Positions 397 through 20,156 of a DNA stretch of 31,654 nucleotides are shown in pieces. Position 1 is the stretch's first letter. Every line of letters begins with the position of its first letter. This DNA is from a virus: the UHGV virus genome UHGV-1544975; one strand, written 5' to 3'. The position numbers and the translations under genes are program-made. The notes beneath the pieces were generated by a model. That model was not told the origin of the DNA and did not search any database. It saw nothing but the letters and a program-made list of their open reading frames with translations.

Positions 397-397
397 T

Positions 398-409
398 GTG
401 ACATGTCAC
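398..409. repeat. 12-bp perfect palindrome GTGACATGTCAC, copy 1 of 3
   Basis: Exact match to copies at 17880..17891 and 20145..20156; overlaps the stop codon of 406..702. Confidence 0.8.
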
Positions 410-702
410 GCTCTTTTTCTGAATGATAGCCATTCGAAAAATGATGACATTCCACCGCAGACAATAGCAAAGATGATCCCACCAAAGAAGAGAAGGCCAG
501 CCTGCCACCACTCCCACCGCCATACATCCACAGCGCCAACCATACCAACAATAGCTCCAACAAATGGAATATAGCTCACGATGAAAGCAATGGGGGCTGC
601 AATTATCCAGTGCAATCCCCACCATGATTCAAGCCCAGCCATAATTGCTGCCAACTGAAAAAGACCAACGACGATATAAACAATGAATCCTATAGCTTGC
701 AT
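406..702 (-). CDS. Small membrane protein, about 3 predicted TM helices (holin-like or exclusion/conversion protein; function unknown)
   Basis: 98 aa, three long hydrophobic segments, AGGTGA RBS; last gene of the late operon. Confidence 0.55.
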   Translation of the reverse strand: MQAIGFIVYIVVGLFQLAAIMAGLESWWGLHWIIAAPIAFIVSYIPFVGAIVGMVGAVDVWRWEWWQAGLLFFGGIIFAIVCGGMSSFFEWLSFRKRA

Positions 703-714
703 GTAGTCACCTAT

Positions 715-888
715 TTACCCAGTAAAAATCAGAGGCCTCCCCTCAATAAGGCTTGCAACAAGAACTATTCCCTGCACAACAAAGATGAACCAGCAAATAG
801 CTTGAGTCTGAGGGTTAAGAAAATATTTGTAGCGGTCAATAAATAACAACCCACCAAAAATTATCACACTCAAAATAATTAAAAACAC
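715..888 (-). CDS. Small hydrophobic protein (57 aa, GTG start), two predicted TM segments
   Basis: Hand-translated; below the ORF-track size cutoff; AAGGAAG RBS overlapping the upstream stop; fills the gap between 898..3372 and 406..702. Confidence 0.35.
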   Translation of the reverse strand: MFLIILSVIIFGGLLFIDRYKYFLNPQTQAICWFIFVVQGIVLVASLIEGRPLIFTG

Positions 889-897
889 AACACTTCC

Positions 898-3372
898 TTA
901 TTGCGGAGTGACATCCTGAGGTCGCCACCAGTATGTCTGGTTAAACTCTTTCTTCGAACGTTGCTCCATTTTACGCAAATAGCCTGGTGAAAAATACTCC
1001 TGCATCTGGTTAAAAATCATGTGATCGAGAGCCGCCTTCAAGTACCAGAGATTCGCACCTGGCATCAAACCTTTCCCCAGCTTCACCAGATCACCACCAG
1101 TCTGCTCACTCTTCCCTTCCACAGCATTTAACGGTATGCCCTGAGCAATCTTCACTACGTCATCAACCAGACCAGCTACCGGGCCAAGCATCGACGCCAG
1201 CGCGCCGCTTCCGTACCTAGTGTGATCTGACAATAAAAAGTCACCGTAAAGGCCAAGACCACCACCTTTCAGTAGAGCACCAAGCCAAAATTTAGCAGCA
1301 TCTTCTCCTGTCATCTCGCGAGGATTACGACCAGACGCAAGGTCGTTAAGTTGCTGCGACAAAGCGCCAAGAATGGTCGTACTGGCAATAAACGTCGCAA
1401 TATATGCCGCACGCCCACCAGCAGACGGCATACCCATAGCGCGTGACCAGTGACGCATAACCACCGAGATAGGGAACGATTTAAACAGGAAAACACTTCT
1501 CGTTAATTCACCTTTCCATGTTCCACGCTGAATACCAGAACCGGTTATCAGTTGCTCACGTGCTCCTGGTGTAATAACAGCCATATCAACTTCTTCAGTT
1601 ACGGCACCGAGCAGTTTACGCATTGCCTCAAATTTCACGCGTTCAGGCTCACCAAGATGTTTAACTGCTGAATCAGGGATACGCATAATGCTTTCCGGTG
1701 TCAGCATCGTATTATTACCGTTCCCCCAGTCCTCCTGTTGCGCCAGCTTCCATACGCTCCAGTCTGTGTCAGTAATCCCTTTGCTTTTCAGGATACGAAA
1801 ATCAGAGTCATCGAGGCTACGAAGGTCTGGTGTCCGTGACACTACTTCTCCCAGGCTTCCCATCATGGTTACGCCATAGGCGCGCTTGTGCGCATCTGAC
1901 CATGCTGTAAGCCCACTGGCACGCATTACCGCCGTTGCCGCCCAACGAGACACTGACGGCCCCATATTATCCATCGCCCAGCGGTTAACGCTGCCAAGTA
2001 GAGATTCCATCGCCAGACCAGCGCGGCGCGCCCGCGCAAGTTCTGTACGGTTCGTTGGGTCCATAGCTTCAAGCTGGTTGCGGAATAACTGGTTCATTGG
2101 AAGGTTGGTCACCTTCGCAGACAGATACATGGTTCCAAGATCAGAGAACGATGATAGCAACGCAGATCCGAGTCTGCTGGCAACCAGCCAGTTGCGGATA
2201 TTGTCAGACCATCGCGCGATGTGCGGATTCGCTACAGGCTGTGTCTTTCCGGAAATAAAGTTGTACAGATTCTCTGTGTTGTTCGCCAGCCGCTCGACTT
2301 TACCGGTTTTACTCGGGTTAGCTGTTGCCGTTTCTGCCTTCACCTGATCAAGAAGAGAGCGGAAAACATGATCGGGGTTTGGGCCATATGTTTCCACCAG
2401 TGCAATATCTTTACTGATACCTTCCAGGTGACCGACCATGATTTCCCATAGAGAGCGATCGCCATAAAGTTGCTGATATTGCAGATAGGAATCTGCATCT
2501 TTGAAATGTATCTGTCGTGATGCATTACCACGGTTAGCACGTGCGCCGGAAATTCGCATTCCGGTATCAGTAAGCTTATTCAGCCCACCAGTAGCGATCG
2601 TGTTATAAGCCTCTCCAAGAAATGCAGACAACTCGGCATCGTTCATCAGTTGTCCATCGGCTCGGATATAATATTTGCGATCCAGCTTACCTATAACATC
2701 GCTAACCCACTTATCCTTTGATACCGCCCCAACCTTTTCCATAGAATGATGTTGAGGGAACCCCCAGTTTTCGAGATAGCCAATGTCCCCACCAGCATCA
2801 TTAAACCGGCGGCGCAGTAGATCTGTCACTTCTCTCCACGCCTTAGCACCTTTTCTTGCTTTAGCATTGCCAGTATTTTGCCCTCGCATTTCATATACCA
2901 GGTCACGTACGCCCGCTTCATCTTCAAACAGACCAAAAAAGCGAGGATCAACTGCTTCGAATGCCTCCTGCAATTGACTCAATGCATAATCACGAGTGGC
3001 TTTTGTTCTGGACTCAACAGAGAGGAAATTCGATTTACCGTCTGCATTAAAAGCAATAGTACGGTTAAGAGCGCCAAGTTTCCCATCAGCCCCTTGATAG
3101 CTATTGATAAATTTATCCAATCTCTGACGTGCGGCTATAGTGAGGGCCACACGACGTTTCTTTAATGCCGCTTCTCGCTGTAATTCTTCAGATGCCAATT
3201 GTGCTGCACGATATAGCCGCTCTGATTCGGAAAGTTGTCTCCACGACATCGGGTCATCACGAGCAATGGAGCGCATATTTCGATAAATGCGGTCTTCAAT
3301 GCTCTGTATTTCTCGCGCCGTTAACGTGCGCTGCGCCGCCTGCTGGACCGCTTGTATACATTCCTGTCTCAT
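898..3372 (-). CDS. Large internal virion / ejection protein (824 aa)
   Basis: Size and position at the distal end of the virion module; hydrophobic segments typical of ejection proteins; no specific family recognised. Confidence 0.45.
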   Translation of the reverse strand: MRQECIQAVQQAAQRTLTAREIQSIEDRIYRNMRSIARDDPMSWRQLSESERLYRAAQLASEELQREAALKKRRVALTIAARQRLDKFINSYQGADGKLGALNRTIAFNADGKSNFLSVESRTKATRDYALSQLQEAFEAVDPRFFGLFEDEAGVRDLVYEMRGQNTGNAKARKGAKAWREVTDLLRRRFNDAGGDIGYLENWGFPQHHSMEKVGAVSKDKWVSDVIGKLDRKYYIRADGQLMNDAELSAFLGEAYNTIATGGLNKLTDTGMRISGARANRGNASRQIHFKDADSYLQYQQLYGDRSLWEIMVGHLEGISKDIALVETYGPNPDHVFRSLLDQVKAETATANPSKTGKVERLANNTENLYNFISGKTQPVANPHIARWSDNIRNWLVASRLGSALLSSFSDLGTMYLSAKVTNLPMNQLFRNQLEAMDPTNRTELARARRAGLAMESLLGSVNRWAMDNMGPSVSRWAATAVMRASGLTAWSDAHKRAYGVTMMGSLGEVVSRTPDLRSLDDSDFRILKSKGITDTDWSVWKLAQQEDWGNGNNTMLTPESIMRIPDSAVKHLGEPERVKFEAMRKLLGAVTEEVDMAVITPGAREQLITGSGIQRGTWKGELTRSVFLFKSFPISVVMRHWSRAMGMPSAGGRAAYIATFIASTTILGALSQQLNDLASGRNPREMTGEDAAKFWLGALLKGGGLGLYGDFLLSDHTRYGSGALASMLGPVAGLVDDVVKIAQGIPLNAVEGKSEQTGGDLVKLGKGLMPGANLWYLKAALDHMIFNQMQEYFSPGYLRKMEQRSKKEFNQTYWWRPQDVTPQ

Positions 3373-3377
3373 TTAAT

Positions 3378-5180
3378 TTAACCTCTCAAGAAACACGCCA
3401 CAGCGACATCAAACAGGCTGGAATCCTGTATTGCCTGCTCACTTTCCCTGTTCGCTTCATCCAGTACTTCACGCGCACTGCGCGATTGTGGATTACCATC
3501 ATCATCCAGCACGGTGATTATCATGTCCGGAGATTCAAGCAGCGAGTCTTCAGCTATACGCAGATCAATATCTCCTGCCGGATCTGCCATCATTTTTTGT
3601 TCTGTCTGTTGCAATATCTTACCGGGCTCAAAAGGAGCTACTTCGTCTGGCGTCCTGACCTCTGCTGTTTTATAGAATGAAACAGCCTGAGCATTAAGTT
3701 CACTTTCTGCCTGCTGTCGTCGTGCCAGTTCTGCTCGAGCTTCAAAAAACTGACCTCCAGGCTCGTGCGGCGCCAACGCGTTACGAGAAAATTCCAGGCG
3801 TTCTTGTGCCTGCCGGATTCGTTGGTCAATATCGCGAAGTCTGGCCTGTTTATCTGATCGAGCACGAGATAAAGCCTTACCGCTACCGGTTGGCTCTTCT
3901 GCAAGAATTTGTGCGCGCTGTTCAGTGAGATTTTCAATAATTCGTTGGCTATTAGCGATTTCAGACTGGTAAACCTGTCTATCGCCACGCGACAAAAGCT
4001 GCGCGGCCTGTTCTTCAAGCAACCGATTTTCTATAGCGCGCGCCGTTACTCCATCATCTACAGATGACAGAGCCTCATTAACTGCCTGAGACAGCAGACT
4101 CTTGCGCCCAGGAATTTCACTGAAAGATGCAGACTCAACAATGCTGGCAACGTCTACAGGTCTCCCCTGGCTAACATCAGACATGGCTTTTCGCAGAGCC
4201 TGAATGTGCGAATTACGCGAAAGCACGTTGATCGGAACGCCGGGAGCAATATCAATTTCAGCATGATGAGCGGCATTCGCCGCCAGTGCAGCATCAATAT
4301 CAACTGGTGAAAAATTTGGTGTGCTTGTAGACTCGCCGCGAGAGTTAATAAATCTGCCGACACCACCAAACGCCACCCCAAGAACAGCATCAATAGCAAT
4401 TGCCTGTCGATCCAACACATCATACTGGTTAGCCATTTCGCTATAGCCACCATCACGAAGCGTTTTTGCAGTAAGCCCACGCTGTGCCATACCGAACGCA
4501 ATATTTGTACCTGCGGCATAGGCAATATCTGGCGTTGCACGTACTGCTGTTGCTGCGGCGCGTCGCACTGAACTTTCACCCGTCCGCGCAAGCTGAGCCG
4601 CCACACCTTCCGCCAGCGCACCACCAGCACGTAACCCGAGGCTCATAGGGATCAGTGTTCCGGCACCAGCAGTAATACCCTGCACTAATCCCGCTTCCTG
4701 CGCCGTCCTGAAATCAACACCCTGTGCTGTCAACCGTTCAAACTCAGAAAAACCCTGTAGAGAAGTTACCGCCGCAGCACCTCCGACCGGACCACCGAGC
4801 GTTGTACCGACAACAGCCTGCCCGCCCATATCGAACAACCCATAAAGGACCTGCCCGGCGGTTCCGGTTGTCGCGGCATCAGGCGTCAGCCGCTTAACCT
4901 GCTGCTCTGCTAGTTTTCTCTGCTCAGCAATGTATGAAACTGAAGTGTCATTGAGCGAGGTGTTTTCGTTAACAAGCTGAGCAATCGGTGATACGATTTT
5001 ATCCATCCCTGCCCATAGCAACTGATCTGGCTTTGCCACCAGCCCGGAGTACAAACCAGACAATGCCGCTCCTACAGCATTGTCGAAAAAACCAACATCG
5101 CTGTTAAAGCCAACTGGATTTGATGCTGCTTCGTCAAGCTGCTGATTCTGGTTTACTGGATTAAGGCCAAAGTAACTCAT
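3378..5180 (-). CDS. Internal virion protein (600 aa), Ala/Gly-rich with a coiled-coil C-terminal part
   Basis: Position between two other large virion proteins; 4-nt overlap with the upstream gene. Confidence 0.45.
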   Translation of the reverse strand: MSYFGLNPVNQNQQLDEAASNPVGFNSDVGFFDNAVGAALSGLYSGLVAKPDQLLWAGMDKIVSPIAQLVNENTSLNDTSVSYIAEQRKLAEQQVKRLTPDAATTGTAGQVLYGLFDMGGQAVVGTTLGGPVGGAAAVTSLQGFSEFERLTAQGVDFRTAQEAGLVQGITAGAGTLIPMSLGLRAGGALAEGVAAQLARTGESSVRRAAATAVRATPDIAYAAGTNIAFGMAQRGLTAKTLRDGGYSEMANQYDVLDRQAIAIDAVLGVAFGGVGRFINSRGESTSTPNFSPVDIDAALAANAAHHAEIDIAPGVPINVLSRNSHIQALRKAMSDVSQGRPVDVASIVESASFSEIPGRKSLLSQAVNEALSSVDDGVTARAIENRLLEEQAAQLLSRGDRQVYQSEIANSQRIIENLTEQRAQILAEEPTGSGKALSRARSDKQARLRDIDQRIRQAQERLEFSRNALAPHEPGGQFFEARAELARRQQAESELNAQAVSFYKTAEVRTPDEVAPFEPGKILQQTEQKMMADPAGDIDLRIAEDSLLESPDMIITVLDDDGNPQSRSAREVLDEANRESEQAIQDSSLFDVAVACFLRG

Positions 5181-7690
5181 TGCGGAATATCTCCGGAGAA
5201 TCTCTGACGCTTCTGTGTCAGATCAAGAACAACGGGAGAACCATCATCTTTTAGCAGATAACCAGTACCAAGTTTCACCAGGTACTGACTATCGCCGTAA
5301 CTTTGCAAACCATACTGACCAGGCGGTGTTTTTATCCCTGTGCCAACAACTTGTTCATTCCAAGCCTGATTAACCTGCTTATCGAATTGCTCTGCAGACA
5401 TTCCCCACGGCAAAAGAACATTCCCCATTCCGTTATAGTCATGCACGCCACCTGTAGCTACGTTAACAGCCTGTTTCCAGATATCATTGTCAATTTCGCC
5501 TGATACCACGCCTTTTTTCGCCATCACACCAGCGTAATAGTCCTTTGCGATCTCGTATGCCATTGATGCCCCCTGAGCATCACCAGCAAATGCATCCTTC
5601 ACCATGTCAGAAAACTCAAGGCGAAGATCAGCATCTTTAGGCATCGGAATACCTTTCGCGTCATCAGTACCTTTACGAGCCGCCGCGCCAGCAAGAATTG
5701 TCTGCGCAGCGGTTTCTGGAGACACGGAAACATCCGGATTAAACCAGTTTTTTTCTGCCAAAATACCACCTGGCTTATCCATCAGTATCCCGGCAACGGC
5801 AGCAGATGGAGCGTTGGCACTGATCTGCTGTAGTGCTGACATATACACCTGCCCACCACCAGTGCTCTGCCTGATGGTATCGAGATATGCTGCCTGTTGG
5901 GAAACGGGCGCATCACGAAAGAAAACACCGATCTGATTGGCCTCGTCTTTGGAAAAGAACGTCAGTGGAGTGCCATATGACTTAGCAAGGTCACTGACCT
6001 GAGCAGCACGCAAGGCAACGCTCTGTCCAAAGTTATCCTTATTGCTCATGTCGATAGGCTTTGCCTGTCCGGCGGCAAGAGAGAACTGTACAGGATCAGC
6101 CTGTCGCTGCTTTATCACCTGACTTGCAGCCGACACAACGTTGTCATAAAGAGCGGCTCGTGCCGCATAACCCTCCCCTGTCTCACCAGTATCCGGGCGT
6201 AATTGCTCAACATATGCTGTAATGCTGCTTGTCGGCATGTTGCGGAAAGAGCCTATATACTGTCCGGCGATTTGCGTATTTCTGAACTCGGTATATCGCA
6301 GGTTTCCTTCTCTTACTCCATAAGCTGCAATAAAATCAGCCTCACCAGGTGGGTTAGGAAATTCAACGCCACGCATATACGCAGCTGTCGCATCGCGAAC
6401 CTGGCTGTCAATCATCGTTTTATATTCAGCCTGCTGCTGCCGACGCAGTTGATCCGCCTGTCGCATAAAACTTGCCTGCGCCTCAGGAGATGCCGCATCG
6501 AATGCTGCATTACCGGTATAGCGTTTGGTGTTGGTTGGAATTGTTGATAAACCAAGTGCTGCACTGACACCAGCAGTTAACTGCTGATCACTGTATGGCT
6601 GGCTACCGTTCTCATGATGGATAATGGCTGCACAAAGCGCCTTCAGGGTATCAGGATTAGATGCATCGAGAGGCTCATCAGCAGAAACGCCAAGTTGTTC
6701 GCACACTGCTTTGATATACGACATAGTGTCATTTTTATCAGCAGGCGGTGCCCAGCGATTAATTATCTCGCTGACGGTATCAATACCCTGCCTCTGATAC
6801 GACATCAGGTTCCGCCCTAATGCACGAATCCCGTGTTCAGGTGTTTCGAATTTAGCAAATCGACCATCATCACCGGTCTGGCCTACCCACGGATTAGTTT
6901 TGCTGTATTCGAGATTTCCTGGGTTATTGTTGCGTATGCCACGGGCACGCTCGGAAGAGTCACTATCTGCTACAGCACGGCGAGCTCCAGCAGCAGTATC
7001 ACTTAACTCGCCATTACTTTGGATGAATGCGGTCGCATTGTTTGCCGACCACTGGGACAATGCAGCATCAGCAACCTTCTCTTTAAACTCGATTTTCTTG
7101 GCCTGGATTTGCTCGTTGCTCCAGCCATGTGCAACACCGTACTCCTCAATTTGCTGGAAAGTTTGCTTGTTAGCCAATACGTATGCGGCGTTGTCGCCAT
7201 ACAATGCTGCGGCATTTTTACCATTGTTCAGCAGTGTCGCCTGAAACTGGCCTTCTTCGTAGGCATTAATTTGCCCTATCTCGTGTCGCCCGGCCTGCGT
7301 AGTGAACTGAATGCGCTGCTGCTGCGCCTGCTGCATGAAAGCATTACGAGCCTGTTCATCCGGCAGCGACATAGCCAGTTGTTCGACCTGAGCATCAAAC
7401 TGCTGCGTATACTCATGGCCTTTTCCAATAGCATTTTTCCCTTTCAGGTTAAGCAATCCTGTTTCAGGATTATTCAGCAGATCGCTGCTTATCTGACTGA
7501 GGTTAAGAGATGCCTCCTGAGCCAGAGCGATATTGGCACGCTGTTTTGCCTGCCCCAAAACATCAATTGCCTCTGTCCCTGCCCGAACAAAAGCATCACC
7601 AATACCTTGCTGAGAAAACGTCTGCAAGCCTGCTGACTGAACTCCACGACTCTCAACCTGACGTCCGGATACTGTTGGTACGACTGGCAT
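5177..7690 (-). CDS. Internal virion protein (about 837 aa) with a possible cell-wall hydrolase segment
   Basis: Likely start at the internal ATG 7688..7690 (GGAGG RBS, overlaps the upstream stop) rather than track start 7765; conserved-looking segment GIRNNNPGNLEY... Confidence 0.45.
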   Translation of the reverse strand: MPVVPTVSGRQVESRGVQSAGLQTFSQQGIGDAFVRAGTEAIDVLGQAKQRANIALAQEASLNLSQISSDLLNNPETGLLNLKGKNAIGKGHEYTQQFDAQVEQLAMSLPDEQARNAFMQQAQQQRIQFTTQAGRHEIGQINAYEEGQFQATLLNNGKNAAALYGDNAAYVLANKQTFQQIEEYGVAHGWSNEQIQAKKIEFKEKVADAALSQWSANNATAFIQSNGELSDTAAGARRAVADSDSSERARGIRNNNPGNLEYSKTNPWVGQTGDDGRFAKFETPEHGIRALGRNLMSYQRQGIDTVSEIINRWAPPADKNDTMSYIKAVCEQLGVSADEPLDASNPDTLKALCAAIIHHENGSQPYSDQQLTAGVSAALGLSTIPTNTKRYTGNAAFDAASPEAQASFMRQADQLRRQQQAEYKTMIDSQVRDATAAYMRGVEFPNPPGEADFIAAYGVREGNLRYTEFRNTQIAGQYIGSFRNMPTSSITAYVEQLRPDTGETGEGYAARAALYDNVVSAASQVIKQRQADPVQFSLAAGQAKPIDMSNKDNFGQSVALRAAQVSDLAKSYGTPLTFFSKDEANQIGVFFRDAPVSQQAAYLDTIRQSTGGGQVYMSALQQISANAPSAAVAGILMDKPGGILAEKNWFNPDVSVSPETAAQTILAGAAARKGTDDAKGIPMPKDADLRLEFSDMVKDAFAGDAQGASMAYEIAKDYYAGVMAKKGVVSGEIDNDIWKQAVNVATGGVHDYNGMGNVLLPWGMSAEQFDKQVNQAWNEQVVGTGIKTPPGQYGLQSYGDSQYLVKLGTGYLLKDDGSPVVLDLTQKRQRFSGDIPQ

Positions 7691-8699: not shown

Positions 8700-11170
8700 C
8701 AGAATCCCCCAACAGTAAGGCGAGGAATAACGGCAAGAACAGACAGCGGCAACGGGTCAAGCTGACGGATTCTTACACGTCCGTTTTTGCCCCAGTTACT
8801 GTCAAGTTTCACTTCTACTTTTCCGGTAGCGTCATCAACAGGATCATCGTAGAACTCGAATTCACGCTGTTGATATTCGTACCATTTACCGCCGGGCGTA
8901 GTCGCCCAGATGCCGCGGCTGGCATTCACAACCAGAGTAACGGATGGGATCACCTGTTTTTTGTCCAGCAGCGTTTCCTGTCCGTTAATGTTGATATCCA
9001 GTGTTTCGAATTCAGCAGTTATTGGCAGGCCGATGTGCACTACAGCCCCCGGTGATTCCAGCGTGACGGCACCTCCGGAAACTACTTTCTGTGGTTCCAC
9101 GTTCGCATCAGAGAGGATGTTTACGGTCTGACCTTCAAGATGAGACAAGCCGCCAAATGCCCGGCGCGCCATCTGCCAGTTCGTGGTGGCCACATTCCTG
9201 ATGGATGGCGGGACGTTCCTGTTAGCACGAACCACTACAGCGGTGTTGCTGGTTACAGAAATAATGTCGCAACGTAATTCTTTTGACACTTCATCGCCAG
9301 TATCAGGATCAGTTCCGGTATAAGGGAACTGTAGTTGCGCACCGACATCACTACTGGTGAAGTACGCACCACCAGAAACACTGATTGTATATTCCGCGCG
9401 GTAATCCCATTCACCAGAACCACCAGTGATGGTCATCGTTCTGTCAGACGTATTTCTTCCATCATAGCTAAGGCCAGAATCAACAAAGAAAGCATCTTCA
9501 TCGCTGGTAAATAAACGGCTGGACAGTCGCTCGATGTATCTCACTGTTTGCCCGTTAACGGTTCGGTTAACGACGAAATACACCGCATCTTCATTGCCTT
9601 CGCTGATACTGCATGTGCTTTCATATTTTCCGGTACTGGACTGTGGTGCCCATGCAAAAACCTGTTGATCACGCAGATAGGTCATCACCAGTAATTTACC
9701 GTCATCACGAATGCAGAAGGCGCTGGAGTAAGGGACAATAGAGAAGCACCAGTCAACAATGCTGTGCTTCTGAAAAAGATGATTGGCAAGGATGGTCAGG
9801 TCGTTCCCCTGATAGCCGTCAACATCGAATGAGTAGGCCAGATCACGGACAACACTGCCTTTCTCCTGGACGAACAGAGCAATATTCGCCACGGCAATTG
9901 GTGGGACATTGCTCGAGCCATTTGATCCCTGAGAGCTGAATGCAAATGATGATGGGGTTAACACTTTGTTCTGGTCGCCGGTGATGACGTACTCACCTCC
10001 GGAAGTCAGTGCCACCAGCGAACCGACATCAATCAGGTGGCGGATCTCATTAACCTGACGCCCGGCATAGGTGTAGATAATTCTGTCGTCATCCTGCGTA
10101 GGATTGCTTTTGCCAAAATCCTTATAATCCCCGGTACGGCTGGCCCAGATAGTCTGAGGGAACGCAGTCGATGCGGCGAAGTAAAGGCGTTGTTGATAAT
10201 AAACAACAGTGCCAGGATAACCGTTAATACTGTTCCAGGCATATTTAGCCCATTTATAGCTGGCATTATCCTCGCCAACTACCTGCGAAGGGATATAGGA
10301 AATCACCTCGGCAGTTGCAGTAGTTCCATTTGCAGCAGAGATACGGGCAATGCCAAAACCACTGTGCAGATACTCCCACTCAATGCCGGTATCATCATCA
10401 CCGGATCCGCCCCAGCCATCCCATGATGTGCCTTCTGTATGCGAAGGGCGCAAAGTGCCTGTTTTGCCTGCTGTAACGGCGCGATAGTAGTTACTGTCTG
10501 CACGGCGAATATCGCCAATCGACGTACTCTTACTGGTTTCCCATACCGGCACAGAATCCACTGCAGGCTGTTCCAGATAGAACAATTTGCCTACCTGCTC
10601 CGCGCCAAAAATTGAGGCGCTTGCCGTTAACGTAATTGTCCCGGTGCTGGCGCTGGCATAAACCGTCACTGACTCGTCAATATTGATATCTTCAAATGGC
10701 CCGTTCTTCGTTACCACATCAACCAGTTGCCAGTTGTCATGCGCATAGCGGCGCAACTCTTTCGGCGGGTATGCCGGATGAACCAGCGTAAGCACGTCTG
10801 CGCTTTGCGTGAATTTAATTCGGAACAGATCGGCTTCAGTATATGGCGTGGCAATTTCATAAATAACATTGCTGCTGTTCAGCACCAACGCACCATCTTT
10901 GATAACGCGCATGTACTGGTGTCCGAACTCCAGAGCATAAGTCTGAACCGTCGAGAACTGGAACGGGATCAGGCGGCATTTCCGATTTGGGTATTTGGCG
11001 GCACCGACAAAACGCGTACCAGGTCGATTCTCAACGCCGCCATACTGCCGCACGATAAAGTTATCGCACTTGCGCAATGCCACCTGGTACTTCGCCATGT
11101 CGATACGACCGTACAACGACGGTCCAATCTCACCACCGGCAAAGCTGGGCTGGATCCAACTGATAGCCAT
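8699..11170 (-). CDS. Tail tubular protein B-like (nozzle), T7 gp12-like (823 aa)
   Basis: Follows the adaptor-like gene; N-terminus pattern GGEIG...NRPG resembles T7 gp12 from memory; size matches. Confidence 0.5.
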   Translation of the reverse strand: MAISWIQPSFAGGEIGPSLYGRIDMAKYQVALRKCDNFIVRQYGGVENRPGTRFVGAAKYPNRKCRLIPFQFSTVQTYALEFGHQYMRVIKDGALVLNSSNVIYEIATPYTEADLFRIKFTQSADVLTLVHPAYPPKELRRYAHDNWQLVDVVTKNGPFEDINIDESVTVYASASTGTITLTASASIFGAEQVGKLFYLEQPAVDSVPVWETSKSTSIGDIRRADSNYYRAVTAGKTGTLRPSHTEGTSWDGWGGSGDDDTGIEWEYLHSGFGIARISAANGTTATAEVISYIPSQVVGEDNASYKWAKYAWNSINGYPGTVVYYQQRLYFAASTAFPQTIWASRTGDYKDFGKSNPTQDDDRIIYTYAGRQVNEIRHLIDVGSLVALTSGGEYVITGDQNKVLTPSSFAFSSQGSNGSSNVPPIAVANIALFVQEKGSVVRDLAYSFDVDGYQGNDLTILANHLFQKHSIVDWCFSIVPYSSAFCIRDDGKLLVMTYLRDQQVFAWAPQSSTGKYESTCSISEGNEDAVYFVVNRTVNGQTVRYIERLSSRLFTSDEDAFFVDSGLSYDGRNTSDRTMTITGGSGEWDYRAEYTISVSGGAYFTSSDVGAQLQFPYTGTDPDTGDEVSKELRCDIISVTSNTAVVVRANRNVPPSIRNVATTNWQMARRAFGGLSHLEGQTVNILSDANVEPQKVVSGGAVTLESPGAVVHIGLPITAEFETLDININGQETLLDKKQVIPSVTLVVNASRGIWATTPGGKWYEYQQREFEFYDDPVDDATGKVEVKLDSNWGKNGRVRIRQLDPLPLSVLAVIPRLTVGGF

Positions 11171-12110: not shown

Positions 12111-12130
12111 AATAAAGGGGCCGAAGCCCC
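12111..12130 (-). terminator. Intra-operon terminator/attenuator between head and tail genes (GGGGC-UUCG-GCCCC then UUUAUU)
   Basis: On the minus strand: 5-bp GC stem, UUCG tetraloop, then TTTATT, immediately before the next RBS. Confidence 0.45.
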
Positions 12131-12148
12131 TTGTCGGATTCGCGAGGC

Positions 12149-12493: not shown

Positions 12494-12494
12494 C

Positions 12495-12932
12495 TTAACC
12501 AGTTACTTTTGAGCGGATCGGGTACGGCGTATTGGCATCAACATCCAGACTGATACCCGCAGTGAATTTGCCGGCCGTTAGTGGGCCAGTTGCGACGGAG
12601 TAGTTAACACGCAGATATCGCTGAACACCGGCAGGCACCTTTGCAGAAACAACTCGTTTACCTGCTGTCAGGGTAGCCTTTGCCAGTGCGCCACTATCAT
12701 AAATAGTGGACCATGAGCTGTTATTCTCACTCGTCTGCAACTGGATGTTTACAGTTGCCTCACCACTTGCCGTGGCGGCTTCGTTAACCAGCACCCAAAA
12801 CTCAAGCGGATAACCCACGCCGATATCGCGACGGTTTCCATCAATTGGACCGAGATCGATTACGTCAGTAGAAGCCGCGGTATTCGTAACCGCCTGAGCT
12901 TCGGAGAACATCAACAGTTTGTCGGTGATCAT
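12495..12932 (-). CDS. Hypothetical protein (145 aa), possible capsid decoration or accessory protein
   Basis: Immediately downstream of the capsid gene, GGAG RBS; composition suggests beta-rich protein. Confidence 0.4.
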   Translation of the reverse strand: MITDKLLMFSEAQAVTNTAASTDVIDLGPIDGNRRDIGVGYPLEFWVLVNEAATASGEATVNIQLQTSENNSSWSTIYDSGALAKATLTAGKRVVSAKVPAGVQRYLRVNYSVATGPLTAGKFTAGISLDVDANTPYPIRSKVTG

Positions 12933-12947
12933 CTTCTTTCTCCATTA

Positions 12948-12967
12948 GTGGGTCTGTTACGACCCAC
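12948..12967 (-). other. Stable stem-loop just after the capsid gene (GTGGGTC-N6-GACCCAC), no U-tract
   Basis: 7-bp perfect stem read directly; between the capsid stop (12984) and the next start (12932). Confidence 0.4.
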
Positions 12968-12983
12968 AGGTTAATAACAGGCG

Positions 12984-13976: not shown

Positions 13977-13984
13977 TTCCTCTC

Positions 13985-14686
13985 TTATTTGCCATAGAGC
14001 ACTTCGGCCGCACTACGCTGGCCTTCATTACCACCGGTGACCATGCCATCTTCAGACATCGCCTTTCCGATTTTCACGAACGTTTTGACCAGATCAGGGT
14101 GATTACCCAGCCCGGTGGTGTTCAGATATTCTTTGAGTTCAGGTGTCCCGAACTGGTCAAGCGCACGCTGTGCGGCGCTAAGGTTAGAAATCAACTTGTC
14201 GCCACCGATTTCTTTGTCAGCTTTTACATCCGCAGCCCACTGCTCGGTTGTTTTCTGCCAGGCTTCTGCCTGGCGCTGCTGAACACCTGCCAGAATCTTC
14301 GGATAAGCATCAACCAGCTTTTGCGCTTGCTCGTTGGTCAGGTTAAGTTCTCGCGCCACCGGCTCGAATTCCTTCAACGCTTCTGTATCCAGCTCTACGC
14401 CTTCGGCAGCCTGAAACTCGTACTTCTCAGGCGCACCCTCTGGTTTATCGCCGTCCTTTTTTTCATCCTGCTTATCGTTTTCAGGCTTTTTGTCATCAGC
14501 AGGTTTATCGCCATCAGCAACAGGTTGTGGCTTATCACCTTCCTGTTGTGATGGATCACCAACTGGAGCAGGGTTATCACCTGCAGGCGCTGACGGTTCT
14601 GACGCAGCCGGAGCTGCTCCACCATCGACTGGTTGCTCATTGCAAAGACGGCGATACAGCAAACGCTCAAATAAACTCATGATCAC
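13985..14686 (-). CDS. Scaffolding protein (233 aa)
   Basis: Acidic, Pro/Asp/Lys-rich low-complexity N-terminal half and helical C-terminal half; lies between portal and capsid. Confidence 0.6.
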   Translation of the reverse strand: MIMSLFERLLYRRLCNEQPVDGGAAPAASEPSAPAGDNPAPVGDPSQQEGDKPQPVADGDKPADDKKPENDKQDEKKDGDKPEGAPEKYEFQAAEGVELDTEALKEFEPVARELNLTNEQAQKLVDAYPKILAGVQQRQAEAWQKTTEQWAADVKADKEIGGDKLISNLSAAQRALDQFGTPELKEYLNTTGLGNHPDLVKTFVKIGKAMSEDGMVTGGNEGQRSAAEVLYGK

Positions 14687-14979
14687 TCCTGTTCACTGGC
14701 CTCTTTGGCCATCTTCAAATACTGTTCAGGGCAATGCGCCATAACGCGCTGAAACAGTTCCAGCGCCAGATTGCGTTGCCCCTCATTAAATGCCATTGCC
14801 ATAGCGTCCATCGGTGAGATAGCGGAAAACACACGGCCTTTCTCCAGCACCGACCAGACAACGCGACGCCCCTGTTCACTGCTCATGACAAAGCGAATGT
14901 CATCAATTTCACGCTGCGCCATGTCACGTTGCTTACGGGCGTTTTCTTCTTTCAGTTGATCGTCTTCGTAATCTGTCAT
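14683..14979 (-). CDS. Hypothetical head-assembly-region protein (98 aa)
   Basis: 4-nt overlaps with both portal and scaffold genes. Confidence 0.45.
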   Translation of the reverse strand: MTDYEDDQLKEENARKQRDMAQREIDDIRFVMSSEQGRRVVWSVLEKGRVFSAISPMDAMAMAFNEGQRNLALELFQRVMAHCPEQYLKMAKEASEQE

Positions 14980-16655
14980 TGTGATTGCCCACCCTGACCA
15001 CTAACTGCATTCGCCATAGCTGACAAAACACTCGGATCCGAAGTTTTAGCTTCGCTTAGCGTCTTGGCCCCCTGTGCCGCCGCCATCCCCATCGCCATCA
15101 TTTGTTGCTGCTGTTGTTGCTGTGCCCGTTGCTGGCGAGCCTGCTCAACCTGTTCCTGCGGAACAATGACGGTTGGAGACACTCCGGACATATCAGCGAA
15201 TGCATCGATCGCCTGATCAACGTTGAGTTTGTCGAGAGCTTCTGGTTTCGCTTGCGCAAGTTGACCAATGAAGTTGACCGTAGACGCCAGACTGGACAGG
15301 CCGATAGACTTCTGCGCCTGAGCCATGACGGAAATGTATTCGACCTTCAGGGGCATACCTTCCATCGCGTCAGGCGGTGGCGGCAGCATGTTTTTACGCA
15401 CCATCATCGAGAAAGCGCGGTCAATGAGAGGATTAAGACATTCGTCGTTCAGACGCTCCAGAACCGGCCCCAACATCAGAAGTTTTTCTTCTTTCATTTC
15501 GATCACTGCTTCAACAGGCATCGAGCGGGTATTGATGTTCTGCAACATCATGAACAGATCGACAAAGTAGGCGCTGTTAATGATTTGACGAGTGTCCTGA
15601 ATGTCTGCTACCAGATCTGCTGTACTGGGGTTAACCAGATAAGCAGGCCTGAAGCCATCCTGACCAGTAATCTGATCGATATACGTGATGTCACCAGGAA
15701 GAAGGGAGGCGCGCTGATTCTTGAGGGAAGTCGGAGCAACCATCGGCGGATTGGTGGCTTTATCAATCAACTGCGACTTGCGCTCCTGGAGAAGTTGCAA
15801 TGCCTTAACAGGTCCAAGCGCCAGCATACCCGGGCATGATGATCCATAAACATCTTCGCCATTAACTTCCCAGCGCGGAGCCATAATTGGAAACTCATCA
15901 AATCCGGACTCACGCAACAACTTGTCGTTATCGCCACCAACCTCGTAATAAACCGATTTGAATGGCTTGTTCTTGCTATCCAGCTTCGATGTATCGCGGT
16001 CAATGTTCGGGTAAACCGAATGCATCACTTCAATCCACTTCTCGTAGGTGCCGCTTTCCCACATGCTTTTTACGGATTCGCTGACGTTATTTAGTCCGAA
16101 CTCCTGAACAAGCTGACGAACAGTCATAGAGAACTTGCGAAAACAGGTGTCCACACTGCCACGAGGTGAGTTAGCCAGGTAGTAACTTCCTATCGGGAAT
16201 GGCATTGTACGAATGATGTCCTCGTCATCCTCCAGCACCGCCATTGCGCCAGTGCTGTATGTGCCGAGGCTTCCGTATAACTGCGGCAGCGACTGATAGA
16301 GATTCGACTTATTGAACATATCGTTCATGCGGTTCTGCACCGCCTCAAGCCACAACTTAACAGGGCCATAATCCATCATTTCAGGATCTGGCGTAGCCAG
16401 GCGAAACCACGGACGCGCGGGGCTTGTGATGCATGACATCATGCCGCTGGCGAGAGTGCGCGCCGCCATAGTCCCGGTCGAATCAATAATGCGTGTATTG
16501 CGTCGATCGTTACGGTTGACCTCAGAAGTCAGAAAGCGGGAACCACGCGGGTTGATGTAATCACTCAACTCGCGCCAGTGCGGCTCGAACGACTGACGCT
16601 CGCTTTCAAGTTGTGCGAACTGTTTGTTCCATCGCTCTTTAGTTGTTTCCGCCAT
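14976..16655 (-). CDS. Portal protein (559 aa)
   Basis: Size, position after terminase and before scaffold, Gln/Ala-rich flexible C-terminus. Confidence 0.7.
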   Translation of the reverse strand: MAETTKERWNKQFAQLESERQSFEPHWRELSDYINPRGSRFLTSEVNRNDRRNTRIIDSTGTMAARTLASGMMSCITSPARPWFRLATPDPEMMDYGPVKLWLEAVQNRMNDMFNKSNLYQSLPQLYGSLGTYSTGAMAVLEDDEDIIRTMPFPIGSYYLANSPRGSVDTCFRKFSMTVRQLVQEFGLNNVSESVKSMWESGTYEKWIEVMHSVYPNIDRDTSKLDSKNKPFKSVYYEVGGDNDKLLRESGFDEFPIMAPRWEVNGEDVYGSSCPGMLALGPVKALQLLQERKSQLIDKATNPPMVAPTSLKNQRASLLPGDITYIDQITGQDGFRPAYLVNPSTADLVADIQDTRQIINSAYFVDLFMMLQNINTRSMPVEAVIEMKEEKLLMLGPVLERLNDECLNPLIDRAFSMMVRKNMLPPPPDAMEGMPLKVEYISVMAQAQKSIGLSSLASTVNFIGQLAQAKPEALDKLNVDQAIDAFADMSGVSPTVIVPQEQVEQARQQRAQQQQQQQMMAMGMAAAQGAKTLSEAKTSDPSVLSAMANAVSGQGGQSQ

Positions 16656-16669
16656 TTCAATGACTCCGG

Positions 16670-16876
16670 TTACTGACCAAGCAGCGTTTTACCGCTGGTA
16701 TTAGCGGTTGATGTGTCGCCCTGAGAACCGGTAAGCAGCGTAGAACTACGACCAGCAGCAGCGCGACGGCGACGAGTTTCTTCGTCGCGGGCATCAACAA
16801 CGGCGGCATCCTGCTCCTGTGGTGCTGCCTGAACTTCTGGTGTTGCAGGCACTGACGGTGAGCTACCCATGCACAT
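16670..16876 (-). CDS. Small Ala/Ser/Thr-rich protein (68 aa) preceding portal
   Basis: RBS context CGGAGTCATTGA before the ATG is repeated before the portal start; alternative frame 16657..16896 lacks this. Confidence 0.4.
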   Translation of the reverse strand: MCMGSSPSVPATPEVQAAPQEQDAAVVDARDEETRRRRAAAGRSSTLLTGSQGDTSTANTSGKTLLGQ

Positions 16877-16965
16877 ATCAATGACTCCGTACGCAATTAA
16901 ATTATTACCAATTTAACCACATATGATTTATTTATCGTAGACAGTTGACATTTAATGCACGAATT

Positions 16966-16982
16966 ATTACCTTTCAGGTAAG
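16966..16982. promoter_or_regulatory. Operator-like palindrome ATTACC-TTTCA-GGTAAG upstream of the portal operon
   Basis: One of about nine copies of the ATTACC-N5-GGTAA motif. Confidence 0.45.
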
Positions 16983-17303
16983 TAAATGGTTCATTCCGGT
17001 TATTAACCTGACTGGCTTGTCGTTAAATTGAACAGGTGGAGTGAGCTTTTATTTTGAGCAGTACGGCGTATGGCACATGCGCCGATAGCGGTCTGGATAC
17101 GTTTAAGGGGCACCCTCCCTTGCTCGGGCAAACGAACCAGGTAGCCGGAATGTGCAAGTCGAGCGGTTTTATTCCGCGCACGGGGATTCACCATCCCGGC
17201 GATTCGGTGTGACGCCTCGGAAGAGACGAGGGTACAACGATGAGAGCATTTATGGAGCCGCGACAAAGTGTGGCGCCTTAACAGGCTAAGTGCTCTCAGC
17301 GTT

Positions 17304-17380
17304 GTGGCATTAGCTCAGTTGGACAGAGCAACCGCCTTCTAAGCGGTTGGTCGCAGGTTCGAATCCTGCATGCCACGCCA
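17304..17380 (+). tRNA. tRNA-Arg (anticodon UCU), 77 nt including 3' CCA
   Basis: Folded by hand: perfect 7-bp acceptor stem GTGGCAT/ATGCCAC, D-stem GCTC/GAGC, anticodon stem ACCGC/GCGGT, loop CTTCTAA, T-arm GCAGG-TTCGAAT-CCTGC, discriminator G, CCA. Confidence 0.9.
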
Positions 17381-17423
17381 GAATCACGCCTAAGGACCGT
17401 GATGCCAGAAGTTCCAGGTGCTT

Positions 17424-17465
17424 GGCGGTGATGGTTTCCCTTGAAGGACTATCACCGCCCTTTTT
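17424..17465 (+). terminator. Rho-independent terminator after the tRNA (GGCGGTGAT...ATCACCGCC then CTTTTT)
   Basis: 9-bp stem plus T-run. Confidence 0.6.
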
Positions 17466-17543
17466 ACAGCAGGACGCCATTGCGATGACTTCATGCTGTA
17501 AACCAGTACAGCCACGGAAGGCATAACTCATTGCTTCCAGTTC

Positions 17544-17567
17544 GCCCGGTTCGCCGGGCATTTTTTT
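17544..17567 (+). terminator. Second terminator-like hairpin (GCCCGG-UUCG-CCGGGC then 7 T) directly upstream of the DUF2829-like gene RBS
   Basis: 6-bp GC stem, UUCG tetraloop, 7-T tract; RBS AAGGTGAG follows immediately. Confidence 0.6.
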
Positions 17568-17578
17568 AAGGTGAGATT

Positions 17579-17875
17579 ATGAGCGAAACATCAACAGTAT
17601 CTTTCTCCACTGCTTTGTCATCACTCAAAGATGGTAAGCGCATTGCACGTGCCGGATGGAATGGCAAAGGCATGTATCTGCAACTGGTTAAGCCACCGCA
17701 ATCGGCCACTCCGAACGAGTGGCGATTTGACGTTACATGCGGTGACGAGTATACATTTGTACCTGGCGTTAAACTTCTACCGTGGATTGGGATGAAAACT
17801 GCTGACGGTTGCTTTGTACCGTGGCTGGCATCTCAAACCGATCTGCTATCTGATGACTGGATTGTAATTCAATAA
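17579..17875 (+). CDS. DUF2829-like small protein (98 aa), candidate Tad2-like anti-Thoeris protein
   Basis: Strong RBS; motifs ARAGWNGKGMYL and PWLASQTDLLSDDW match my recollection of DUF2829; opposite strand to flanking late genes. Confidence 0.5.
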   Translation: MSETSTVSFSTALSSLKDGKRIARAGWNGKGMYLQLVKPPQSATPNEWRFDVTCGDEYTFVPGVKLLPWIGMKTADGCFVPWLASQTDLLSDDWIVIQ

Positions 17876-17879
17876 CACC

Positions 17880-17891
17880 GTGACATGTCAC
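17880..17891. repeat. 12-bp perfect palindrome GTGACATGTCAC, copy 2 of 3
   Basis: Exact match; between the DUF2829-like gene and the large terminase 3' end. Confidence 0.8.
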
Positions 17892-17895
17892 AAAC

Positions 17896-17922
17896 AGCCA
17901 GCCTATGAGCTGGCTTTGTTTT
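17896..17922. terminator. Terminator hairpin (AGCCAGC-N6-GCTGGCT then TTTGTTTT) at a convergent gene junction
   Basis: 7-bp stem with T-rich tail on the plus strand. Confidence 0.5.
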
Positions 17923-17965
17923 ATCCTCACCAGAGGATATCAACGACATTATCCCCACCAGCGGA

Positions 17966-19441
17966 TTAAGCATAGGGATCGTAATCTGTAATGGCCTTGC
18001 CTTGCTGGTTCTGCTGACCTGGAATTCGCAGACGCTTCGACACAGGGAAAGCAAACGTCAGCAATAGCGCATCGCCTTTACCAGGAGAACGCCCAAGCCG
18101 CTCCTTGATATCTTCCTTCGGTTCGATAACGATTTTACCGTCCACTCGAACTTTGTACTCTGCCGCCGACAGGTCGTCCGCTGTTTCCTGGTCATCAAGC
18201 ATGCCGCCCAGCCTCAGCCATGTCTTGCATGAGTTGAACATCTCCCCGCGCTTATTGAGCATCTGCGGGTCAGTAGACGCGCCACCGAACGGAACAAGTT
18301 GCCATGTACGACCCCAGCCATCACCGATTGACTTCAGACCAGTTCCGTAACCGAAGTCGATGAACACTGCGTCAGCCTGGTACTGGTCTTCAAAGTCAGC
18401 GATACGCTTCGCCATAATCAGATCGTCAGTGGTCTTGTTGCCGGTCCACAGCACCTTACTGTGCAGCCCCTGCCGCAGATATATCACCGCGTCATCAACA
18501 CCGGAGTATGCCGGGTCAACGCCGATTATCACCGGAGCATGTGCAACCTGCGCAGCGGTGACCACCCGTTTCATTGCCTCGTCAGTAAGTCCGGTAGGGA
18601 TAAACTGCAATTCAGATGCATCCGGGAATATGCCGCGCACACGGATTTTAACGAAGTCGCTATCTTCCCCGTAGTCATCAACCCATTTCTGCAACTGCTG
18701 TTTGTTAGTGCCTTCCACCGTCCGGCTGTCAATCTGCGCAGTTTTCCAGCGGTGTTTGTATTTGCGGAAACATTCGCGAAAACGCCCGGTATTACGTGTA
18801 GGGTTTCCGAACGCCACCCAGATAATCTCAGTGTCTTCGTCCGTAAGCGCACCCTCAGCAACTTCCCACACCAGATCCGCAATGTTCGACGCTTCATCGA
18901 ATACCACGATGATGCGTTTGCGCTCGTTGTGTAGTCCGGCGAATGCCTCAGTGTTGTGCTCAGACCAGGGGATTGCGTCAGCTCGCCACCGCTTGTCGTG
19001 CCCAGGATCATTGCTGTACATCGCAGTAGCGGTACAGGTAAACCAGTCTTTCGTGATAGCAAGGTTCGACCACTTGATAATTTCCGGCCAGGTCTTCGTT
19101 CGTAGCTGGTTGTCGGTGTTGGCGGTCACCACGACCTTACAATCCTCGCAAGTGGACATGCCCCAGTTGATCAGCATTGAGATGAATGCGGATTTACCAA
19201 TACCGTGACCCGAAGCACGTGCCAGCATAAGCGGCTGATAGCGCGTCTCTGGATTCTGCAGGTGATCACGTATCTCTCGGAACGCATCAGCCTGCCACTG
19301 ACGTGGGCCGGTAGCATGTGCCAGTTCAGTCCCCTCTTCCCCCCACGGGAACGCATAGAGGGCATAGCCAAGCGGATCGTGAGTGAACCCTGCAATATCC
19401 TCGATCAACTGCTCTTCAGGAGATAACGCTGTATCTGTCAC
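17966..19441 (-). CDS. Terminase large subunit (491 aa)
   Basis: Walker A-like GHGIGKS, Walker B-like IIVVFDEAS, acidic C-terminal nuclease-like region; overlaps the small-subunit stop. Confidence 0.9.
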   Translation of the reverse strand: MTDTALSPEEQLIEDIAGFTHDPLGYALYAFPWGEEGTELAHATGPRQWQADAFREIRDHLQNPETRYQPLMLARASGHGIGKSAFISMLINWGMSTCEDCKVVVTANTDNQLRTKTWPEIIKWSNLAITKDWFTCTATAMYSNDPGHDKRWRADAIPWSEHNTEAFAGLHNERKRIIVVFDEASNIADLVWEVAEGALTDEDTEIIWVAFGNPTRNTGRFRECFRKYKHRWKTAQIDSRTVEGTNKQQLQKWVDDYGEDSDFVKIRVRGIFPDASELQFIPTGLTDEAMKRVVTAAQVAHAPVIIGVDPAYSGVDDAVIYLRQGLHSKVLWTGNKTTDDLIMAKRIADFEDQYQADAVFIDFGYGTGLKSIGDGWGRTWQLVPFGGASTDPQMLNKRGEMFNSCKTWLRLGGMLDDQETADDLSAAEYKVRVDGKIVIEPKEDIKERLGRSPGKGDALLLTFAFPVSKRLRIPGQQNQQGKAITDYDPYA

Positions 19442-20034
19442 TGATTACCATCCTGACGTTCTTTGAGTCGCTTCCTGGCTGCTGCTATGCGATCAGCAAT
19501 TGTCACATTCACATTAACATCCAGACGTTCTTTGAACGCGTTGACATCAACATGCTTACCAATCAGCTCAAGGTTCTTCACCTTGTCAGGCCATTTAATT
19601 TTTTTGAGGATTGTCTCTATCGAATCCTCGTTCATGTTCATGATGGTCGATGACAGATCAAAGCCACTAAGCGTAGTGCGCCAGATTTTCGGCCACTCAC
19701 GGATTGGTTTAAGGCTCCCATCGTCGTTGAGGATGTCGATCACGTCCATCTGGTCGATCTGCACCAGGCGCATGAGAACGTAATCAGCACTGACGCGCAT
19801 TCGTTTGTTGCGCTCCTCCATCAACTCGGCAATCCGTTTTTGAATGCGTTCATCGCGCATCATGACACTGGCTTTAACTGCCGCTGTATTTGGGGAGAAT
19901 CCTGCGTTAATCGCTGCCTGAGTCTGGTTTTCAGGCGTTTTGATGTATGACTGGCAATAAGCCTCCTGCATTGCTGTTAGTGGCTTAAATTGCGTTGATT
20001 TGCGTTTATAGGTTTTAGGTTCAGCAGGCATCAT
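19438..20034 (-). CDS. Terminase small subunit (about 198 aa)
   Basis: Small-terminase-like DNA-binding N-terminus (TAMQEAYCQSYIKTPENQTQAAINAGFS); track start 20112 is probably over-extended; tandem ATGs at 20034 and 20031 follow GGTGG. Confidence 0.65.
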   Translation of the reverse strand: MMPAEPKTYKRKSTQFKPLTAMQEAYCQSYIKTPENQTQAAINAGFSPNTAAVKASVMMRDERIQKRIAELMEERNKRMRVSADYVLMRLVQIDQMDVIDILNDDGSLKPIREWPKIWRTTLSGFDLSSTIMNMNEDSIETILKKIKWPDKVKNLELIGKHVDVNAFKERLDVNVNVTIADRIAAARKRLKERQDGNQ

Positions 20035-20050
20035 AACCACCGTGGTAATA

Positions 20051-20067
20051 GTTACCGTTGTGGTAAT
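20051..20067. promoter_or_regulatory. Operator-like palindrome (minus-strand reading ATTACC-ACAAC-GGTAAC) with an extra GGTAAT half-site, just upstream of the terminase gene
   Basis: Motif copy read directly; lies inside the spurious N-terminal extension of the track ORF. Confidence 0.45.
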
Positions 20068-20069
20068 AG

Positions 20070-20103
20070 TACCATACAAAATAAAGCCGCCATAGTTGGC
20101 GGC
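20070..20103 (-). terminator. Rho-independent terminator (GCCGCCA-N4-TGGCGGC then UUUAUUUUGUAU on the minus strand) separating accessory genes from the terminase operon
   Basis: 7-bp perfect stem, T-rich tail on the minus strand. Confidence 0.55.
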
Positions 20104-20144
20104 AGTATTCAAAACCCATCAAATTCATCATGCATAATCTACTC

Positions 20145-20156
20145 GTGACATGTCAC
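20145..20156. repeat. 12-bp perfect palindrome GTGACATGTCAC, copy 3 of 3
   Basis: Exact match; overlaps the stop codon of 20153..20494 in the same register as copy 1. Confidence 0.8.

Follow-up and report, generated by a model that had tools for sequence, protein, structure and literature searches.

A matS-like palindrome and a small accompanying gene in Uetakevirus and unrelated temperate phages

The closest described counterpart of the element reported here is matS, a 13-bp site of the form GTGAC[AG]N[TC]GTCAC (PMC3603311), the consensus of which, GTGACATTGTCAC, is read by MatP with helix alpha4 and strand beta1 of its ribbon-helix-helix (PMC8669397). Prophages were found by Bobay et al. 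to be without any matS, and counter-selection there was thought likely (PMC3603311). The present analysis concerns a perfect 12-bp palindrome, GTGACATGTCAC, which occurs three times in UHGV virus genome UHGV-1544975, a stretch of 31,654 nucleotides that is hereafter referred to in its entirety as the window and that represents an epsilon15/phiV10-like podophage (Uetakevirus) with 95-99% identity to phiV10, the O157 typing phages 9 and 10, HEMP4 and phiv142-3. The palindrome equals matS minus one central base (GTGAC-N2-GTCAC versus GTGAC-N3-GTCAC), and the explanation favoured here, with moderate confidence, is that its copies are the cognate matS-like duplex-DNA sites of a phage-encoded protein of the ribbon-helix-helix type, which may act at transcription boundaries.

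The likeness to MatP/matS extends from the half-sites GTGAC...GTCAC to the dyad symmetry, the degenerate centre and the small number of dispersed sites per replicon, and the candidate reader, a 112-aa phage protein of the gp49 family, is modelled with a basic helix followed by a strand-like segment and a pair of helices, an order that matches MatP. Unlike that system, the phage element has a spacer of 2 rather than 3 bp, its protein lacks helices 1-3 and the C-terminal coiled-coil and carries a four-Cys module instead, and the sites are located in phage genomes, one of them on the gene's own stop codon, with no known role in Ter, MukBEF or divisome function. Arc, Mnt, CopG, omega, ParD and related antitoxins share with the phage pair a small protein, a predicted beta-alpha-alpha core, a short palindrome and the co-inheritance of gene and site; however, the phage sites lie at 3' ends or within genes and not at the promoter of the own operon, and the protein has an extra basic helix and the Cys4 module. 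The genome order of last early gene, its site, intrinsic terminator and late genes is that of lambda Q/qut/tR', but the phage protein falls outside the Q family, no conserved promoter carries the element and the ends of operons have further sites. Arbiol et al. in 2010 and Clark et al. in 2001 have reportedly described PeSL cassettes in T4-type phages and 'boundary/linker sequences' in lambdoid phages; short conserved regulatory sequences flank variable ORFs at mosaic junctions there as they do here, but the conserved core in the present case, a palindrome of 12 bp, goes with a single protein family and is not a repeat made of a promoter and a stem-loop. The literature searched contained no paper with the 12-mer and none on phage 'matS-like' or 'MatP-like' elements, and the vB_EcoP_ZX5 paper does not mention the motif.

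Occurrence and conservation of the palindrome

A scan of the window returned three exact copies of the palindrome, referred to below as site C (copy 1), site B (copy 2) and site A (copy 3; Table 1), and no further exact copy. None of 100 dinucleotide-preserving shuffles of the window contained any copy, and the expectation under a uniform model is 0.002. When up to two mismatches were allowed, a single extra match was obtained, at 14916, which is at chance level, and one mismatch in the palindrome arms likewise gave one extra match against 0.9 expected. At sites C and A, the TGA codons of the minus-strand ORFs 406..702 and 20153..20494 occupy palindrome positions 2-4, in one and the same register, and site B begins 4 nt past the TAA of the plus-strand Tad2-like gene. 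Each copy is found at the 3' end of a transcription unit and, relative to the transcription of that unit, precedes a terminator hairpin by 0 nt (site C), 4 nt (site B) or 41 nt (site A). On all these points, namely the number and location of the copies, their improbability by chance, the shared register over TGA and the neighbouring hairpins, the original prediction, which had been made from the letters of the window, agrees with the present analysis. An ATGA is also present 13 nt from every copy in the window; it is not kept in the relatives and was treated as chance.

The identical 12-mer is present at three syntenic places in phiV10, Salmonella phage SPN1S, Enterobacter phage Tyrion and Klebsiella phage BUCT711, although the flanks diverge and the DNA identity of these relatives to the window falls to about 80% in places. 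The equivalents of site C are located at 19493 in phiV10, 19662 in SPN1S, 20377 in Tyrion and 18526 in BUCT711, and the third copy straddles the junction of the linear record in phiV10 and Tyrion. SPN1S has a fourth copy, with one mismatch (GTGACATGTCAT, 26722..26733), which covers the TGA of the spanin gene Rz where the lysis block ends and is in register with the other copies.

In a genus-wide sample of 80 related IMG/VR loci (1.31 Mb), 129 occurrences of GTGAC-NN-GTCAC were counted against 1.25 expected, all of them at sites A or B, and 425.7 kb of upstream early-region DNA contained none. Site A is kept in 78 of the 80 loci, at the end of the 112-aa gene, and site B in about three quarters of them, after terL and 3-4 nt from the hairpin. 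A terminator lies within 60 nt of the site in 63 of 78 unique Uetakevirus contexts as compared with 15% of random positions. The search of related phages that had been suggested along with the original prediction thus finds the 12-mer at the same three syntenic places in relatives from four host genera, and the conservation of position on which that prediction was made to depend is observed. As judged from these comparisons, the thrice-repeated palindrome is a real and strongly selected cis element.

A gene that accompanies the site

The gene ending inside site A encodes a protein of PHROG 536, a family that carries the label 'transcriptional regulator'. More than 700 relatives (clusters at 90% identity) were identified at E<=0.001; no Pfam or NCBIfam family matched the protein. 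Four Cys residues are invariant, and the N-terminal helix of the 112-aa protein is arginine-rich. An AlphaFold model calculated from a 40-sequence alignment (mean pLDDT 72.8, core 84-93) places a basic helix at residues 5-19, an extended stretch at 20-29 and two further helices at 30-40 and 52-75, with a poorly defined Cys-rich tail. On this model the protein resembles ribbon-helix-helix proteins, to which a basic helix would be added at the N-terminus and a module of four cysteines at the C-terminus. Foldseek searches against PDB and BFVD returned no useful structural match.

Searches of phage genomes with tblastn identified distant homologues (31-41% identity) in P2-like Yersinia myophages, in the linear phage-plasmids N15 and phiKO2, in many Vibrio phages and in Aeromonas phages; homologues are also present in Xenorhabdus-type phages, and within plasmid collections the family is essentially limited to phiKO2- and N15-like phage-plasmids. 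Where homologues occur, GTGAC-N2-GTCAC is enriched about 60-100-fold and often lies over the stop codon of the homologue in the same register. The 57 Yersinia P2-like loci (0.94 Mb) contain 58 N2 sites, nearly all of them on the TGA of the homologue in that register, as exemplified by a Yersinia phage in which the TGA is contained in GTGACGCGTCAC. N15 and phiKO2 have three sites each, one with the homologue's TGA within GTGACTGGTCAC and two identical copies, in repA and upstream of the antirepressor operon, and the 30 Vibrio and Xenorhabdus-type loci (0.50 Mb) have 32 N2 sites. The other spacings (N0, N1 and N3-N7) are at background, with at most three occurrences each. Background controls consisted of the 425.7 kb of early phage DNA, 84 kb of matP loci, lambda, P22 and P2, and the last three, which are without the gene, have no N2 site. 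Lambda (L259) was seen to carry GTGAC-N1-GTCAC twice, at 9747 in gene G and at 19010 in lom, a number reached in none of 100 shuffles, which may nevertheless be chance.

The central dinucleotide varies along with the clade of the protein and with its predicted strand. AT (about 150 sites) is found with x-K-[LIV]-E-[LI], TG with TTRRDWVLE in the N15 group, NC with IQE[LV]RLK in Vibrio phages and GC with INEIRARLE in Yersinia phages. As is characteristic of ribbon-helix-helix regulators, a palindromic operator is inherited together with the gene, the site being on or near the gene's stop codon in Uetakevirus, P2-like and N15-like phages. This pattern of co-occurrence suggests that the palindrome is probably bound by the phage's own 112-aa protein. 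A link of the motif to terminators was considered as a general property and was discarded, as it holds for Uetakevirus only; since sites can also lie inside genes, it is the protein-site pair that is general, and the placement at boundaries is specific to the genus. Within genes, a side observation concerns the Xenorhabdus- and Proteus-type lambdoid phages, in which GTGACATGTCAC is read in frame (R-D-M-S) in the gene at the cII position (L095, 5916..6392, site at 6322) and is invariant, with adjacent codons that vary.

The site does not match the 13-bp motif of matS: its arms are identical to those of matS, but its spacer is 2 bp in all three copies in the window and in more than 220 related sites, the N3 spacing being seen twice. 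These two true 13-bp matS-type sites, GTGACACCGTCAC and GTGACGCCGTCAC, are the only ones in about 2.9 Mb of gene-carrying phage DNA, and were found in Vibrio phage K308 (L007, 6769) and in one Yersinia-type locus. The absence of matS from prophages fits a deliberately offset spacing in these phages. Nor could the 112-aa protein be placed in the MatP family by sequence, since the Pfam MatP domains PF06303 and PF17414 gave no match in 40 family members even at E<=10, no significant similarity was obtained and a profile search of PDB sequences did not find MatP. With hhalign, the helix, strand and two helices of the phage protein are placed on alpha4-beta1-alpha5-alpha6 of MatP with non-significant E-values of 0.38 and 0.34, the MatP side of the comparison being narrow (an 80-species set from genome contigs, 87-100% identical) and too uniform to lift the signal; a homologue search with E. 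coli MatP gave nearly exclusively copies of 97-100% identity (one of 69%), which are unsuited to a profile. With the modelled order of elements in view, it is plausible that the 112-aa protein works like the DNA-reading core of MatP.

Transcription boundaries and rival explanations

A homodimer of the 112-aa protein would dock on each palindrome in duplex DNA, and the overlap of one site with the stop codon of the gene itself would keep gene and site together as one module. In Uetakevirus, the extra sites are located where transcription blocks end, each directly before a one-directional intrinsic terminator; the blocks concerned are the early operon, which precedes terS, the moron that faces terL and the structural block. 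The bound protein would act on RNA polymerase reaching these boundaries. At tA it would control whether transcription passes the terminator and enters the late genes, and at tB and tC it would insulate or allow read-through, so that the protein-site pair would represent an early-to-late switch element combined with boundary control. This step from binding to the control of transcription boundaries is put forward tentatively, as one possible role. An early-to-late switch is preferred because the 112-aa gene is the last early gene in this phage, because no Q-like, N-like or other antiterminator was found among the early genes with Pfam, NCBIfam and PHROG, because no convincing promoter was seen between tA and terS, and because morons on the opposite strand interrupt the late blocks, which run on the minus strand from terS, terL and portal on to ORF 406..702; no obvious late promoter was found either.

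Among the roles named in the original prediction, that of a protein-binding boundary element is the best supported, as the 12-mer does not vary between genera at the syntenic ends of operons and co-occurs with a small ribbon-helix-helix-like gene in unrelated families. That prediction contained neither the link to the gene nor the near-identity to matS, and neither the processing site that it named nor the restriction-site core that it proposed to check for found support (see below).

Several observations weigh against control at transcription boundaries. Adjacency to terminators is not enriched in the P2-like, N15-like, Vibrio and Xenorhabdus-type loci, where some sites fall within coding sequence, as in repA and in the gene at the cII position, and N15 and P2-like phages have late regulators of their own (Q and Ogr); the functional suggestion is thus specific to one genus. 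At site B, the palindrome lies downstream of the hairpin for transcription in the late direction. Some loci that bear a homologue, such as that of an Aeromonas phage, have no site in the DNA examined, and the covariation of centre and protein spans just four clades, which are not independent of one another.

Temperate podo-, myo- and siphoviruses and phage-plasmids of Enterobacterales and Vibrio carry a near-matS with a spacer shorter by one base, together with a small dedicated gene, conserved as a unit. If binding is as proposed, the widespread PHROG 536 family, which previously had neither, would be provided with a function and a DNA target. Such binding would furthermore make the pair a candidate for the early-to-late control element that is still missing from epsilon15-like phages, account for the build-up of morons, including the anti-defence Tad2, at fixed points of the genome and raise the question of a common origin of, or interference between, the host Ter organiser and the phage module.

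The main rival to boundary control is that the protein is a MatP-like organiser of DNA, which folds or pairs phage DNA by bridging the dispersed sites, or sister copies of them, or else interferes with host Ter/MukBEF; the placement beside terminators would then be incidental, no other non-coding DNA being available. MatP-matS is the best structural match, the resemblance to matS and the few dispersed sites per genome point the same way, and the intragenic sites of N15, phiKO2 and Xenorhabdus-type phages, with no association with promoters, would be readily accommodated. The P2-like phages, however, have essentially one site, the protein is without the N-terminal bundle and the coiled-coil of MatP, and the abutment of terminators at 0-4 nt in Uetakevirus is very regular, so that this organiser is considered doubtful. 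A broader form of the same idea, that phages of MatP-bearing bacteria carry their own host-independent MatP/matS-like system, with a minimal reader and a shortened matS, which is related to the Ter organiser and possibly its source, and which folds or pairs phage genomes or tampers with MukBEF/Ter in lytic growth, appears unlikely.

Alternatively, host MatP itself may bind the sites as mimics of matS, and the phage would thereby recruit it, perhaps so that MukBEF is expelled from the phage DNA or that this DNA is brought near the divisome. The hosts of these phages, which we take to belong without exception to MatP-bearing taxa, would permit this. N15 and phiV10 both infect E. coli, yet the centres of their sites differ, which a single host factor does not explain and a phage-encoded reader does; MatP is 87-100% conserved over 80 Enterobacteriaceae species, and the motif tracks the phage gene and not the host. 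Although the arms are identical to those of matS (PMC3603311, PMC8669397), the strong preponderance of the N2 over the N3 spacer in the phage sites and the reported absence of true matS from prophages (PMC3603311) make recruitment of host MatP improbable.

The palindromes are conserved islands at mosaic junctions, and a further rival holds that they are mere linkers, a micro-homology for module exchange or recombination hotspot without a cognate protein. At least five different contents were found immediately to the right of site A among related phages, the variants being a short leader with tA (as in the window), an intact ORF of about 70 aa, LexA-box promoters with umuD-like genes, another unrelated gene and an SPN1S-type leader. 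At site B, the left side, with terL and the terminator, is constant and the right side is occupied by at least eight different antisense morons, each ending 3-5 nt from the palindrome, and at site C the genes on both sides vary and the site and terminator persist. Mosaic junctions thus begin 2-5 nt from sites A and B, and the phage has RecET-like recombination genes. On the other hand, the 12 bases are perfect across genera, whereas the terminator stems drift with compensatory changes (at tB, AGCCAGC/GCTGGCT versus AGCCCGC/GCGGGCT), which indicates sequence-specific selection; the same arms are found beside one gene family in unrelated phages, and junctions are expected at any conserved island. 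Since a mosaic pattern is expected around any essential non-coding element under homologous exchange, no dedicated recombinase is needed. The earlier suggestion of a module boundary and recombination hotspot is therefore borne out as regards evolutionary mosaicism at sites A and B, but no sign of a dedicated site-specific mechanism was found, and a linker without a cognate protein is very improbable. Integron attC sites are imperfect palindromes of 57-141 bp that are recombined by the IntI integrase; the present core is a perfect palindrome of 12 bp, the variable genes face it from either strand, and the sole integrase annotated in the close relative phiV10 is of the P4 type.

That the element works as RNA, either as a 3' UTR processing or stability signal or as the loading site of an RNA-binding antiterminator with an N-like arginine-rich N-terminus, is hardly credible, for although transcription of the units covers the site at their 3' ends, several lineages have a Shine-Dalgarno sequence directly after it and the N-terminal helix of the protein is arginine-rich, the hairpin of the site has only 4 bp, with a folding energy of -1.2 kcal/mol, the prediction gives no competing pairs between site and terminators, no Rfam family matches, and the perfect two-fold symmetry of the arms with a fixed spacer and a variable centre is typical of a dimer reading duplex DNA. 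A type II restriction-site core is not supported, as the centre varies by phage lineage (AT, GC, TG, NC). A pac or terminase site was rejected, since it does not fit the three dispersed copies and the motif is also present in cos phages (N15, P2-like). The palindrome was also considered as the -35 element of a late promoter, since GTGACA matches TTGACA at five of six positions and -10-like hexamers are present 17-18 bp away in the window, SPN1S, Tyrion and BUCT711; this was dropped because the commonest relatives start an ORF 10 nt past the site and have no -10, and the CATGAT of the window falls inside an 8-codon ORF remnant.

Terminators, neighbouring genes and minor observations

The three hairpins next to the palindromes have the GC-rich stem and U-tract of intrinsic terminators, which the 12-mer itself has not. 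Their coordinates are given in Table 1 together with those of the sites and of the neighbouring genes.

Table 1. Positions of the palindromes, terminators and adjacent genes in the window
Feature	Position	Strand	Remarks
Site A	20145..20156		GTGACATGTCAC over TGA stop of gp49-family gene; early-to-late junction
Site B	17880..17891		Palindrome flanked by terL terminator and 3' end of convergent plus-strand moron
Site C	398..409		Palindrome over TGA stop of last gene of structural block
Terminator hairpin tA	20086..20103	-	GCCGCCAACTATGGCGGC then TTTATTTTG; site A 41 nt upstream; before terS; conserved in relatives
Terminator hairpin tB	17896..17915	+	Followed by TTGTTTTAT; 4 nt past site B; good U-tract on plus (moron) strand only
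Terminator hairpin tC	380..397	-	AGGCCGCTTTCGCGGCCT then TGTTTTT; hairpin followed by TTGTTTTT; 0 nt downstream of site C
gp49-family gene, 112 aa (PHROG 536)	20153..20491	-	Stop inside site A; proposed palindrome binder
Terminase small subunit (terS)	19438..20034	-	First late gene; probable start ATG 20034
Terminase large subunit (terL)	17966..19441	-	Closes first late block, ahead of tB and site B
Tad2-like (anti-Thoeris) moron	17579..17875	+	TAA 4 nt before site B; other genes here in other relatives
tRNA-Arg (anticodon TCT)	17304..17380	+	Within minus-strand late region, just upstream of Tad2-like gene
98-aa gene (PHROG 3075)	406..702	-	Last gene of structural operon in this phage; stop within site C

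The longest terS ORF would begin at a TTG at 20112, as annotated in phiV10, and would cross tA; the ATG listed in Table 1 agrees better with the Pfam domain and with the annotation of Tyrion. Taken together, the tRNA-Arg and Tad2-like genes resemble a moron unit. The stretch ATGCATGATGAATTTGATGGGTTTTGA (20109..20135, minus strand), next to site A, is an 8-codon remnant of the ORF of about 70 aa mentioned above, which is intact in at least 17 related phages (for example L020, 10358..10570). Perfect LexA boxes (CTGT-N8-ACAG) were observed in the promoters of umuD-like genes directly past site A in BUCT711 (L004, about 370-430) and, after about 10348, in L079-L082, and on the basis of these boxes such inserts are SOS-controlled morons at the early/late junction. 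Between tA and the probable start of terS, a direct repeat with a period of 18, ACTATTACCAC in minus-strand reading, was noted at 20042..20052 and 20060..20070; it is mostly kept in SPN1S and Tyrion and could represent the leader of terS, a site related to pac or one for an activator.

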